64,000 nucleotides of DNA, taken from the NCBI GenBank assembly GCA_965248835.1, contig CBDFLJ010000001.1:1248001-1312000 (forward strand). The letters run 5' to 3'. The notes under the pieces were generated by a model. It did no database searches and had not been told where the DNA came from. It saw only the letters and a program-made list of their open reading frames with translations. This DNA is from Alphaproteobacteria bacterium (GTDB lineage: Bacteria > Pseudomonadota > Alphaproteobacteria > MPNO01). Each line of letters opens with the position of its first letter. Position 1 is the stretch's first letter. A program made the translations under genes and the position numbers. Below, piece by piece: positions 57,024 through 60,532 of the stretch.

Positions 57024-57395
57024 TTACGCGCTCGCAGAATAAGCCACCCCCAAGTCGTCCGCGACCCGCCTCAATCGCCGATCCCGTGTCCAGAGCGTCG
57101 TGCCGTCTCGACTGAGCACTGAACAGATGAGATGTGCATCGACAAAACCTATCCCGCGCCCCATCAGCTTCCTTGAATCGATCATCGATAGAACCTTTGC
57201 ATGGTCCAATTCTCCGATGGCAGGCAGGGCGTTCAATCTTCGTAAGAGGTCCACCCGCTTGGGTAGATTTCCGCAGGCAAGCTCGCCGATGATCATCGCG
57301 TGCGTCAGCACGTCGCCGGCATGCAGGAGCTTGGGAAGTTCGGAGTCCGCGCTGCGCAAATGGTCGATCCACACCGAAGTGTCCACAAGGATCAT
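57024..57395 (-). CDS. vapC: VapC PIN-domain toxin (VapC32-like), intact
   Basis: MILVDTSVWIDHL, IIGELACG, GRGIGFVDAHL and LWTRDRRL: the acidic PIN active-site residues are present. Confidence 0.92.
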   Translation of the reverse strand: MILVDTSVWIDHLRSADSELPKLLHAGDVLTHAMIIGELACGNLPKRVDLLRRLNALPAIGELDHAKVLSMIDSRKLMGRGIGFVDAHLICSVLSRDGTTLWTRDRRLRRVADDLGVAYSASA

Positions 57396-60300
57396 TCCGT
57401 GATTTCACTCTGTCGGCGTGGGATATATTCGAGATTCGGGGCGCTGCCGCCGGCCTGGGCCAGCCACTCGGCTGCATCGAGTTCGGCCGTCGAGCGGAAG
57501 CGTTCGATAATACCGTCAAATTCAGCTTCTACCTTGGCCGCGAAGTCGTGTTCCATGGCGTAGACGTCTCGGAACTCGGCAAAAGCCCAGCGCCCGTACG
57601 CACCGAGCCGATTCACGCCGGGCACCCAGTAGGTGTCCATGGTTGCTTTCTTGTCTTTCGCGTCCTCGCCTCGATACCCCTTGATCTCGACGATCAGGTG
57701 CAGCGGGTCGTCGTCCCCGTGCCCATCGTCCACCAGCACGATGAAATCCGGGATGTAGGTGTGCGCCGAGGAACCGTGGCGGTAGGGCACCTCCAGGCCG
57801 AGACCCTGGTTCTTGACATAGGCATGAACCCGGGGGTGCGCTTCGGCGACGCGGCAGAACTCCGCTTCCCAGTCGCCGTCGCAGACCACCCAGTTGACGT
57901 GGCAGCGGCGTGGGTCGGTTTCCCAAAGTGTCTTCTTCGAGGTCGTGAAGCGGACATGGATCGTTGAGCCGGCCGGGTTGTAGGGGTCGAGAACGGCCTT
58001 GACCGGACGTTCGTCCACATGCGCCTCGACGATGCCGTTCGTGATGCGCTCGCAGGCCATGTCGGCGAGTTCCTGATATATGAGCTGCGCCGGGTAGGTC
58101 CCGCCCTTGCAGACGAGATGGTTGTCCAGCCATCGGCGCGTGATCCGCTTGAGCTGGCCGAAGAGGAAGAGCTTCGGCTCCTCGCCGGGATCTCGCCACT
58201 TCGTCTCTATCAGTCTTTTCGTGAGATGAAACAGGAGCGTCGAGACACGCAAGTCACCGAGGTGTTCGAGGCTCAAATTCACTCCCTCTCCGATGATTCC
58301 TTCGTTGCGGGTGATCGAAGGGCCGACGATCTCCGGGGTGAGCTCCAAGGTCGAATCGTCGTCGAACCTGGCCTGTAGGCGCTTCTCGGGCAACTCGATG
58401 CGGTAACCCGCGACACGCGGGAAGTGGATCTCGCATGCGTCGCGGTCCGGGCTCATTGCCTTGACCTGCACGATCGGGCGCGGCGGCTGCGGCGGTGCGA
58501 CGACCGGCTTGGCCGTGAAGTCGAACGGGATGCCGAGCACGTCGGCATATTCCACGTCCATGCGGCCTTCTTCGTTCAGGTCGTAGGATTGCCGCCGCAG
58601 CGCCCGGCCGACCACCTGCTCACAGAGAAGTTGCGTGCCGAAGGCGCGCACGCCAAGGACATGGGTGACGGTGTTAGCATCCCAGCCTTCCGTCAGCATC
58701 GAAACTGAGACGACGCAGCGGGTTGCACCGCCGAGCCTGCCCACCTTGCCGACGGTGTTCATCACCTCGCGCAGCAGATCCTGGTCGGACAGGTTCTCGG
58801 CCTGTTGGCGGTCGCCCGTGCGCTCGACGATCTCGCGGCGGAAGCGGTCGATCTCGTCCACGGCCATGCTGCGGAAGTTCCTGTCGAGAGCCTGCCCGGA
58901 TTCGAGCTGCTCGCTGTCGATGAGCAGAGTGTGCGGGCGGGCGAGCGGATTGCCGTGCTCGTCGAAGTTCCGGAACAGTTCGAGGCGGCCGCTCTCCAAG
59001 GTCGTGGAACCGTCGGGGTTCTCGCGGACGAAGCCGGAGATGTAGTCGTAGACCACCTTCGACGTCGACGTGTTGTTGCACACCACAATGAAGCAGGGCG
59101 GGACATCGATGTCCGCGTCTTTCCACAACTCGAACGTCTTCGCGTAATGCCCGTAGAGGGCTTCCATCGCCGTCTGGAGCGTGATCGGGATCTTGAGGGG
59201 GTCGAGGTTGGGTGCCTTGCCGCGACCCTTCTTCGGCATCTCCTTGCCGATGTGATCCCACAGGTTCCGAAATTTCGGCATGTCGCCGCCCGGGATATTG
59301 TCGGCTACCGGCACTCGGGGCAGCTTGACGATCCCGCATTCGATCGCGTCCATTAGCGAGAAATCGCACATGGTCCAGGGGAACAGCGTTCCTTCGGCGT
59401 AGCCCGAACCGCGCAGGAAGAACGGCGTCGCCGAGAGATCGATCACACGATTGAGGCCGAGCTTCCGGCCGACCGCCTCCAGCCCTGATATCCAGAGCCG
59501 GGCCGCTTCCCGGTTCTTCTCGGCTTCCTTGCGGTCGTCGCCTTTCAGGTCCCCTTCGTCGTCCTCCCCCGGTTTCTCGCGGTAGCAATGATGCGCCTCG
59601 TCGTTCAGCACCATGACGTTCTTCATGCCCATAAGCTCGGGCATGACGCGCTGGAGCATCTGCCCGGTGGTCTCCACCGAGCTCAGCTCGGGACCTCTTC
59701 CTTGGAGAAGGGCGCGGCCTCCCTTCGAGACGGACATCGTCTCCCTGGGCTTGAAGGCGTGGAAGTTGGTGATGACGATCTTCGCCCGGTCCAGATCGCC
59801 CAGCATGTCGTCGGGAACCAGTTCCCGACTCTTGTAGTAGCTGTCCGGATCGTTGGGTTGCAGCACGCGGAGCCGGTCGCGGATCGTGAGCCCCGGGGTC
59901 ACTACGAGGAAGCCGCGCGTAAATCTTCGGCTGTTGGGACGGCGGACCGCATTGATCGTCTGCCAGGCGATCAGCATCGCCATGACGGTGGTCTTGCCGG
60001 TGCCGGTGGCGAGCTTCAGCGCCAGCCGGGCGAGATCCGGGTTCGCCTGCGCGTTCGCCGCACCCAGATGTTCGAGAAACCGCTTTCCGGCAGCTCCCAG
60101 ATTGGGCGCGACCTCGGTCAGCCAGATCACGGTCTCCACGGCTTCGACCTGGCAGAAGAAGGGGCGGAAACTGTTGAATTCGTGATGGCGCCAGTGCCGG
60201 AGCAAACGGGCTGTCTCGGGCGTCACCCGCCACTGGGCGGGATCCGGCAGCGCCCGCCAATCATCGACCGCGTGGCGCACGCTGTTGATGATCTCCATCA

Positions 60301-60532
60301 AATCGTATTGCTGGCTCTCGGTGGCGAGCTTCTGTGCGGCCTCGTCGAAGACCAGCTCGCGCTGGTTCCGTTTACGCTTTTTCGGCTTCGGGATCGGCGT
60401 GATGAACGCGACGCGGCGACGCCGATCGAGGATCTGGTTCGTAGGCTGGCCGATTTCATCGAGTTCCCAATGGCGTGATGGATACTCGTAGGGTGAATTG
60501 AGGATCGGGCGGTCAAAGAAGCTTTCCGTCAT
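57392..60532 (-). CDS. Type III restriction-like endonuclease/SF2 ATPase (BPTD_3080-like) with C-terminal VapB-like tail
   Basis: LATGTGKT, NDEAHH, SATP, MLTEGWD, QVVGRALRR, PD-(D/E)xK nuclease IPDF...VEIKG; tail AAEWLAQAGGSAPNLEYIPRRQSE. Confidence 0.9.
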   Translation of the reverse strand: MTESFFDRPILNSPYEYPSRHWELDEIGQPTNQILDRRRRVAFITPIPKPKKRKRNQRELVFDEAAQKLATESQQYDLMEIINSVRHAVDDWRALPDPAQWRVTPETARLLRHWRHHEFNSFRPFFCQVEAVETVIWLTEVAPNLGAAGKRFLEHLGAANAQANPDLARLALKLATGTGKTTVMAMLIAWQTINAVRRPNSRRFTRGFLVVTPGLTIRDRLRVLQPNDPDSYYKSRELVPDDMLGDLDRAKIVITNFHAFKPRETMSVSKGGRALLQGRGPELSSVETTGQMLQRVMPELMGMKNVMVLNDEAHHCYREKPGEDDEGDLKGDDRKEAEKNREAARLWISGLEAVGRKLGLNRVIDLSATPFFLRGSGYAEGTLFPWTMCDFSLMDAIECGIVKLPRVPVADNIPGGDMPKFRNLWDHIGKEMPKKGRGKAPNLDPLKIPITLQTAMEALYGHYAKTFELWKDADIDVPPCFIVVCNNTSTSKVVYDYISGFVRENPDGSTTLESGRLELFRNFDEHGNPLARPHTLLIDSEQLESGQALDRNFRSMAVDEIDRFRREIVERTGDRQQAENLSDQDLLREVMNTVGKVGRLGGATRCVVSVSMLTEGWDANTVTHVLGVRAFGTQLLCEQVVGRALRRQSYDLNEEGRMDVEYADVLGIPFDFTAKPVVAPPQPPRPIVQVKAMSPDRDACEIHFPRVAGYRIELPEKRLQARFDDDSTLELTPEIVGPSITRNEGIIGEGVNLSLEHLGDLRVSTLLFHLTKRLIETKWRDPGEEPKLFLFGQLKRITRRWLDNHLVCKGGTYPAQLIYQELADMACERITNGIVEAHVDERPVKAVLDPYNPAGSTIHVRFTTSKKTLWETDPRRCHVNWVVCDGDWEAEFCRVAEAHPRVHAYVKNQGLGLEVPYRHGSSAHTYIPDFIVLVDDGHGDDDPLHLIVEIKGYRGEDAKDKKATMDTYWVPGVNRLGAYGRWAFAEFRDVYAMEHDFAAKVEAEFDGIIERFRSTAELDAAEWLAQAGGSAPNLEYIPRRQSEITE

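Follow-up and report, generated by a model that had tools for sequence, protein, structure and literature searches.

A VapB-like C-terminal peptide on a type III-like restriction subunit, next to an intact vapC gene: a candidate antitoxin within a restriction enzyme

The restriction subunit Res of a type III-like restriction-modification (RM) system, encoded in a 64,000-nucleotide stretch of an alphaproteobacterial genome (GCA_965248835.1, contig CBDFLJ010000001.1, positions 1,248,001 to 1,312,000; called the window in the following, with all positions given in its own numbering), ends in a peptide that is homologous to the C-terminus of VapB antitoxins, and its stop codon overlaps the start codon of an intact vapC gene. 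Judged from sequence comparisons, the Res tail and VapC appear to represent a VapBC toxin-antitoxin (TA) pair in which all that is left of the antitoxin is a peptide attached to a restriction enzyme, in a form that is conserved across phyla. We consider it likely that Res itself serves as the antitoxin, i.e., that it carries a VapC-neutralising peptide, that vapC is re-initiated at the res stop codon and that VapC remains silent as long as Res is intact.

The tail of Res, its relation to VapB and the overlapping vapC gene

The open reading frame (ORF) of res lies on the minus strand and extends from a TTG at 60547 to 57392. The ATG at 60532 is the probable start and the TTG an alternative; the protein read from the ATG has 1046 residues (57392..60532) and equals the closest homologue, P0003, in length. 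Res is a restriction subunit with helicase and putative nuclease parts and was assigned to the BPTD_3080 restriction endonuclease family by NCBIfam NF046055 (1346.8 bits, cut-off 800), which spans residues 11-1005 of 1051 in the numbering from the TTG, equivalent to profile positions 1-969 of 970, so that 46 residues stand past the end of the model. PF04851 (ResIII) was found as well (33.2 bits, cut-off 22.5, E 6e-8), the motifs GTGKT, DEAH and D..EIK are readable in the translation, and matches to PF19778 (RE_endonuc, 17.7 bits, cut-off 23.4) and to REase_III of PADLOC (E 1e-4) were weak. The protein ends ...FAAKVEAEFDGIIERFRSTAELDAAEWLAQAGGSAPNLEYIPRRQSEITE*, with a TGA at 57394..57392. As the element ...VEAEF..(I/M)IER. 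is retained by tail-less homologues, the true addition comprises the last ~34 residues (RSTAELDAAEWLAQAGGSAPNLEYIPRRQSEITE; 57395..57496, minus strand), with a core matching free VapB at about 57398..57490. An earlier reading of the window, made from its letters without database searches (the sequence-only reading), had described an extension of about 33 residues past the family end, and the alignment with tail-less homologues bears this out with ~34 residues.

The four bases ATGA at 57392..57395 (minus strand) are shared between the Res stop codon (57394..57392) and the vapC start codon (57395..57393), in agreement with the overlap noted by the same reading. Overlaps of four bases or one base are likewise present in the related loci L019, L028-L031, L033 and L034 and in free vapBC loci, and the ATGA appears to represent translational coupling of res and vapC as in the free pairs. 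The junction is in frame in two assembled contigs spanning 57167-57707 and 57167-57641, neither of which shows any difference or gap; these stem from two runs of one sample, possibly the window's own source, and are no independent evidence, while the many homologues that share the frame would seem the stronger evidence. A second contig in the runs X1 and X2 covers 57015-57150, and thus part of vapC, at similar depth with 11 base differences; a second vapC allele or strain is present in the sample of these runs.

The vapC gene (57024..57395, minus strand; read from 57395 to 57024) is intact, as the sequence-only reading had stated, and codes for 123 residues, in which a PIN domain was the sole domain identified (PF01850, 40 bits, cut-off 23.6). 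All 19 aligned homologues share, without exception, the four acidic residues D5, E38, D86 and D105. Searching the predicted structure (mean predicted local distance difference test score, pLDDT, 94.4) with Foldseek yielded as best PDB matches the Mycobacterium tuberculosis toxins VapC11 (6a7v; template modelling score, TM, 0.75, 23% identity) and VapC15 (4chg, TM 0.74); identity to VapBC11 and VapBC15 amounts to 22-23%, and a sequence search against the PDB gave no match at E 0.01. The gene is single-copy in the genome, without a paralogue. The NCBIfam equivalog TA_toxin_VapC (NF047959) reached 28.6 bits, below its cut-off of 80. By domain, fold and context, the protein would therefore be classed as a PIN/VapC-type toxin outside this narrow equivalog. 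PADLOC returned no match for VapC, hence no sequence relation to PrrC or PARIS was seen.

Evidence for the origin of the tail comes from the free relatives of this toxin. Among 400 genomes of the window's class, 13 VapC homologues (45-53% identical) were identified, 12 of which are preceded by a free VapB of 64-74 residues that carries PF09957 over residues 1-46 and ends ...ESARRLARLGGSEPxLxxxPRRR. Upstream of the thirteenth, which belongs to another family (L019), a tailed Res homologue terminates at the vapC start. When a profile of 20 Res tails was compared by hhalign with that of the 12 free VapB proteins, a Prob of 97.2 and an E of 4.2e-11 were obtained over 29 columns; tail residues 33-61 pair with VapB residues 37-65, and the Gly-Gly, Pro and Arg-Arg positions are invariant in both groups. 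PF09957, the ribbon-helix-helix (RHH) domain of VapB, matched neither Res nor its last 50 residues, and Pfam and NCBIfam scans of these 50 residues, the kind of family search by which the sequence-only reading had hoped to recognise VapB, returned nothing at E up to 1. This failure is explained by the fact that the Pfam model of VapB stops short of the VapB C-terminus, and it was the direct alignment to free VapB that revealed the relationship. All these comparisons support the view that the tail is the toxin-binding C-terminal module of VapB minus its RHH DNA-binding domain, as that reading had proposed; Res would accordingly not be a member of the VapB family but a carrier of its C-terminal module alone. 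Chance similarity between tail and VapB was ruled out by the profile comparison, the co-occurrence with vapC and the fixed spacing of the motif.

When the whole 4.89-Mb genome was searched in six frames for the profile of these 12 free VapB proteins, the best match was the Res tail itself (57404-57490, E 0.009), and PF09957 gave no hit above its cut-off anywhere in this genome. The absence of a separate vapB, which the sequence-only reading had reported for the surrounding island, thus extends to the genome, in which the Res tail is the sole candidate antitoxin that such comparisons bring to light. That the toxin is of the type matching the tail also stands, as 12 of the 13 VapC homologues pair with a VapB of this kind; the labels VapB32 and VapC32 given by the same reading found no support, the nearest solved pairs being VapBC11 and VapBC15.

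A structural model of VapC (alignment of 19 sequences) together with the 62-residue end of Res (alignment of 20) was computed in three runs alongside three controls. The complex scored 0.87 (runs 0.87, 0.87 and 0.89) and the best control 0.00; 58 of 80 solved complexes and 2 of 110 mismatched pairs attain the mark of 0.87. The runs share at least 98% of their contacts, with a partner pLDDT of at least 71. The modelled interface comprises residues 27-56 of the 62-residue piece, R55 and R56 included, and on the VapC side residues 6-7, 38-39, 85-86 and 105, in the neighbourhood of the catalytic residues D5, E38, D86 and D105. A predicted position of the tail over the active-site face of VapC is thereby supported, with the invariant Arg-Arg probably reaching into the acidic pocket.

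Recurrence and descent of the tailed design

Res homologues were collected from 5.8 billion protein clusters and scored on residues 930-1051; the best 120 of 7996, a selection biased towards the tail of the query, contain the tail in 75 cases. Arg-Arg follows Gly-Gly at a distance of exactly 11 residues in 76 of these 121 proteins (the window's Res and the best 120), and the tail consensus reads AAx(W/R)L(A/I)xAGG(S/T)xP(D/N)LE(Y/D)IPRR(R/K)SE. A DNA scan for the tail only, using a pattern from 8 closer sequences against one genome per species, identified seven loci, namely two in Binatia, one in an alphaproteobacterium, one in Dehalococcoidia and three in gammaproteobacteria. Six of them have a vapC homologue (57-64% identical) that begins at, or overlaps with, the stop codon of Res. 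L029-L031 come from environmental metagenome-assembled genomes. The gene is intact at five of the seven, broken by a stop codon at one (L028) and absent from one (L032), and L019, recovered by the VapC search, adds a further independent tailed case. An assembly error or a one-off deletion scar, which the sequence-only reading had kept in mind as a trivial origin of the fusion, is ruled out by this recurrence across phyla.

No match to the VapC profile was present downstream of Res at any of 30 evaluable loci with a tail-less or degenerate-tail Res, 9 of which were taken from a set of 40 relatives, while the other 21 came from 400 genomes of the phylum searched, without bias, with the family model; 8 more loci were left out, as the end of their Res lies beyond the contig. 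Among the loci without vapC, Res ends in a decayed tail in L004, L008 and L010, as would be expected if the tail is retained only for VapC. Downstream of Res, these three loci share a gene of their own with the motif ..NGPS..H.DI..R..IHR..E.AIA.G.., and L004 has a P-loop protein (GPNNTGKT) there as well.

In a VapC tree, all seven Res-linked proteins group in one clade apart from the 12 VapCs of free pairs (support 0.87). Although this tree is midpoint-rooted and built from a small sample, with all free pairs stemming from one class, it suggests common descent of the Res-linked toxins. In blastn comparisons with the closest tail-less loci, L005 and L006 (about 80% identical DNA), homology ends at 57559, passes over the tail and vapC, and resumes at the DUF2283 gene (56923) and once more at mod (56259), whereas against the tailed loci L029 and L030 it continues uninterrupted through tail and vapC to 57058 and 57115, respectively. 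The last ~55 codons of res, tail included, and vapC thus behave like an exchangeable cassette (57024..57559, minus strand) in the gap between res and mod. This gap, a hot spot, is occupied by further small genes of a TA-like kind in relatives; in L005 and L006 it contains an ORF of 60-77 residues followed by a DUF2283-like gene. Four loci on viral contigs matched the Res part alone, and a tblastn search of plasmids with the tail of the window, or with the second tail type described below, returned nothing.

The same tail was also searched for on other proteins, using a profile built on the C-terminal 36 residues of 9 Res proteins against 1.84 billion representative sequences. It matched 100 proteins at E up to 0.001, six of them at E up to 1e-10. 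All are shorter than 400 residues except P0193, a 607-residue C-terminal Res fragment, full-length Res being masked in this search by tail-less cluster representatives. By motif rules, the matches divide into 13 C-terminal Res fragments, 7 RHH VapB-like proteins and 80 others. Pfam confirmed a DUF2283 head in P0179 and an MqsA-type head in P0222. Judged by eye, the tail also follows HicB-like heads (P0220, P0221), a zinc ribbon (P0141) and, in P0133, the RHH head of a second antitoxin type, for which the Pfam scan was empty; P0154 and P0207 each carry two tails in tandem. In these comparisons the tail behaves like a portable, putatively toxin-binding module.

A second tail type (T2, ...GRKLTRDEMNER; also given as ...QQAAEAMRVMRELQGKLRVGRKLTRDEMNER and ...RELQGKLRVGRKLTRDEMNER) is present on 5 of the best 120 Res homologues (P0058, P0068, P0080, P0091 and P0104). 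In 28 metagenome loci, T2 forms the C-terminus of a small free protein that starts MKNITLSADE and mostly measures 63-108 residues from stop to stop, and in 25 of these a gene that begins in a PIN-like manner, ...F(I/L)DTN(V/L)F..., as judged by motif only, overlaps the stop codon. Of 80 metagenome loci (among them L071-L148), 36 were examined (28 + 8); they consist of free antitoxin-PIN pairs or tail-less Res, and no Res with T2 was among them. The genes downstream of Res in L108, L113, L117, L119, L141 and L145 we take, by eye, to be Fic-like or ORF6N/Bro-N-like. In the Res tree, the T2 proteins form a small clade among tail-less ones: three of the four included are sisters, P0058 stands just outside, and two tail-less proteins are nested between.

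Via the fragments P0130, P0135 and P0152, the tail was further traced to a family of Eco57I-type RM methylases (PF07669) of 1321-1376 residues. Of the 69 members listed with 1000 residues or more, 31 terminate in a tail of the window's type (within P0225-P0342; for example P0236, P0237 and P0247), and it begins right where tail-less members stop. A search of 800 genomes, one half from the class and the other from the phylum around G811, yielded no tailed locus of this family, all 16 matches being tail-less. In P0271, a frameshifted read-through, a VapC-like start was recognised in another frame (score 148; shuffled sequences 68.7 +/- 14.5, maximum 108, n 217), no more than an indirect hint at a vapC start overlapping the Eco57I-like tail. 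The tailed design is probably not unique to one enzyme family.

Neighbouring genes and the surrounding island

Between 50.7 and 60.5 kb, the window contains one string of minus-strand genes, consisting of res, vapC, a DUF2283 remnant, a hicB-like gene, hicA, mod and a NERD+UvrD-type helicase gene. The Mod protein (53447..56251, 934 residues) is an N6/N4 DNA methyltransferase and the partner of Res; it was identified by PF01555 (E 6e-30) and matched PADLOC MTase_III PDLC03632 over its full length with 1371 bits. In L028-L031 and L033, mod is likewise found downstream of vapC. Directly after mod follows the gene of a UvrD-type helicase (50732..53173, 813 residues), which PADLOC lists as the candidate 'NERD+UvrD' (C3a187, E 9e-25) and which was also matched by GajB models; it may be another defence gene of the island.

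Three smaller genes fill the space between vapC and mod. The DUF2283 remnant (56705..56923, partial match to PF10049) is split over two reading frames with a break near 56848, and its intact, homologous counterpart is present in L005 and L006. A HicB-like (UPF0150) antitoxin gene of about 67 residues (56476..56682) matched PF21748 and PF15919 under their cut-offs, and a near-identical gene is sited between vapC and mod in L030. The adjoining hicA toxin gene (56274..56478; PF07927, 30 bits, cut-off 27) is again split over two frames, with a break near 56420. While vapC and res are intact, hicA and the DUF2283 gene are thus frame-broken, through either decay of these neighbours or assembly indels (the reads cover 56900-57900).

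The G+C content amounts to 55-63% at about 52.5-61.5 kb and to 68-72% in the flanks, so the stretch around res, vapC and mod fits an acquired island. Upstream of res, three minus-strand ORFs of 107, 294 and 600 residues (60529-63993) gave no match in Pfam, NCBIfam or PADLOC, and a terminator-like hairpin is located at 61023-61011 (minus strand). No sigma-70-like promoter was detected in 56000-61500 and no tRNA gene in 45000-64000.

Possible roles and relation to known systems

If Res is the antitoxin, a vapBC module would have lost the DNA-binding half of vapB, and the remaining toxin-binding peptide would have become the C-terminus of a restriction subunit. Translation of vapC would proceed by re-initiation or coupling at the res stop codon, and because of this coupling each new VapC would be made beside a new tail, which would wrap the active-site face of the PIN domain and block the active site. 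Only the continued production and persistence of full-length Res would keep VapC harmless; once res is lost or truncated, or its protein destroyed, an RNase would be left with no antidote. The likeliest use of such an arrangement would be genetic addiction, by which the island and the 3-kb res reading frame would be guarded against loss or truncation. To our knowledge, type III-like systems are not expected to kill by themselves after their loss.

Several observations weigh against this interpretation. A large restriction enzyme may be too stable to take the place of a labile antitoxin, and coupling would also cut vapC expression when res is truncated, which weakens protection against decay in particular. 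The analyses gave no indication of a trigger that releases VapC. The binding itself comes from a model, and the likeness to the solved VapBC11 (6a7v) and VapBC15 (4chg) may have inflated its pass. Pfam and NCBIfam are blind to the tail, and the free-VapB profile scores it at only E 0.009 per genome, or 19.7 bits by script. The design is a minority, seen at none of the 21 evaluable Res loci of the unbiased 400-genome sample of the phylum, and in a tree built from 113 Res proteins tailed members are interspersed with tail-less ones, implying that the tail was often gained, lost or exchanged. The sequence-only reading had expected the tail to be absent from Res homologues that lack vapC. At L032 this fails, as an intact tail is followed by a different gene there, although the lack of vapC at this locus looks like a recent loss.

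A guard released by phages, which the sequence-only reading had put forward by analogy with PrrC, is the alternative closest to the antitoxin reading, since it includes the same binding step between Res and VapC and differs by the trigger alone: an anti-restriction protein, proteolysis or displacement of Res would free VapC, with shutdown of translation and abortive infection as the result. The position of vapC within an RM operon of a low-G+C island, near further defence-type genes (the NERD+UvrD candidate and hicAB), speaks for it, as does the predicted placement of the tail on the active-site face, and the available text of PMC12707154 treats RM guardians, PrrC and PARIS among them, as an accepted category. 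On the other hand, neither a phage factor nor a release mechanism was indicated by the analyses, VapC lacks homology to PrrC or PARIS (no PADLOC match), and a covalent, clamped peptide should be hard to displace by inhibitors that act on DNA-binding or motor parts; by analogy with these guardians we regard phage-triggered release as possible, if rather unlikely. VapC might instead be a standing subunit, the tail docking a VapC dimer that pairs two Res molecules for double-strand cuts or adds an RNase to the enzyme. VapC proteins form dimers, the fusion yields co-translated partners at a 1:1 ratio, and the design is conserved alongside intact Res and Mod. The tail, however, retains the conserved residues of free antitoxins and in the model covers the catalytic face, which fits inhibition, most Res family members function without a tail, and L028 and L032 broke or lost vapC yet keep res, so that a permanent role as subunit appears improbable to us.

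The least credible of the alternatives is a neutral scar, in which a vapBC pair entered the space between res and mod, the vapB remnant was joined to res by a deletion and the TA pair has been hitch-hiking since. Such an origin would be in line with the hot-spot nature of the res-mod gap and its other TA-like genes in relatives, with the decayed appearance of the window's hicA and DUF2283 genes and with the patchy distribution of the tail on the Res tree. It is opposed by the fact that junction, spacing and overlap are retained at VapC identities of 46-64% over four classes, that the invariant positions of the tail match those of free VapB, that the tail decays where vapC is gone and that the same tail is found on an unrelated enzyme family, and we give it very little weight. 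Addiction by way of Res as the antitoxin consequently heads our ranking of uses, before phage-triggered release and a permanent subunit, with the neutral scar disfavoured.

Compared with canonical VapBC pairs, in which VapB bears an RHH domain (PF09957) and of which M. tuberculosis VapBC11 (6a7v) and VapBC15 (4chg) are the nearest solved, the system shares a PIN toxin with four acidic residues, the antitoxin C-terminal motif ...LGG(S/T)xPxLxxxPRR, an antitoxin stop codon overlapping the toxin start and, here as a prediction, a peptide over the active-site face. It differs in that a restriction subunit of ~1000 residues replaces the N-terminal RHH domain for DNA binding and dimerisation; as a result of this replacement, antitoxin autoregulation would be lost, and abundance and lifetime of the antitoxin would become those of Res. 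The available text of PMC12707154 describes PrrC/EcoprrI and PARIS as 'RM guardians', i.e., translation-targeting toxins that are tied to a restriction system and silenced by it. A toxin embedded in or tied to a restriction system is what we propose here as well. PrrC, however, is a separate protein that is held non-covalently by a type IC enzyme and freed by a phage peptide, whereas the inhibitor in our case would be a covalent part of Res derived from a TA antitoxin, without sequence relation to these guardians.

Transcriptional coupling of PIN genes to type I RM operons, in some cases with no antitoxin to be recognised, was reported by Matelska et al. (2017; PMC5499597), where the missing antitoxins are taken to suggest another mode of control and a direct interaction of TA with RM components is described as yet to be shown. 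In contrast to these type I cases as presented there, the window holds a type III-like system whose missing antitoxin would be located inside Res; the available text of that paper does not describe a fusion of an antitoxin to an RM subunit. In modular, 'hyperpromiscuous' antitoxins, toxin-binding and other parts recombine freely (NetFlax, PMC10440598), and the finding of the tail on RHH, DUF2283 and MqsA-type heads is in accordance with this. The partners in the part of PMC10440598 available to us are small TA proteins, and it makes no mention of a large defence enzyme in the role of carrier. In agreement with the sequence-only reading, which knew of no system of this design, a literature search outside of which supplements and subscription journals stood found no published account in which an antitoxin peptide is joined to a restriction subunit, and the name 'BPTD_3080' did not occur in the papers searched.

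Beyond this locus, we tentatively put forward, at somewhat less than even confidence, that antitoxin peptides on restriction enzymes represent a general and so far unrecognised wiring between toxins and RM systems, which might be called covalently guarded or self-addicting RM. BPTD_3080-type Res proteins would then have captured at least two VapB-type tails, each from its own PIN pair, and the Eco57I-like family would share the tail of the window. Were this so, many 'orphan' PIN toxins by RM genes would have their antitoxin in the last 30 residues of the enzyme, and an RNase would police the integrity of restriction enzymes in many phyla. Toxin genes without a visible antitoxin adjoin RM genes in many genomes, and the window would offer a concrete answer for one widespread family. 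If Res indeed acts as the antitoxin, this would physically connect an enzyme of innate immunity with an effector of suicide or dormancy, explain how a type III-like system can become hard to lose or to inactivate and supply a portable peptide of minimal size for silencing a PIN RNase. Annotators would then have reason to check the C-terminal extensions of defence enzymes before naming a neighbouring toxin an 'orphan'.

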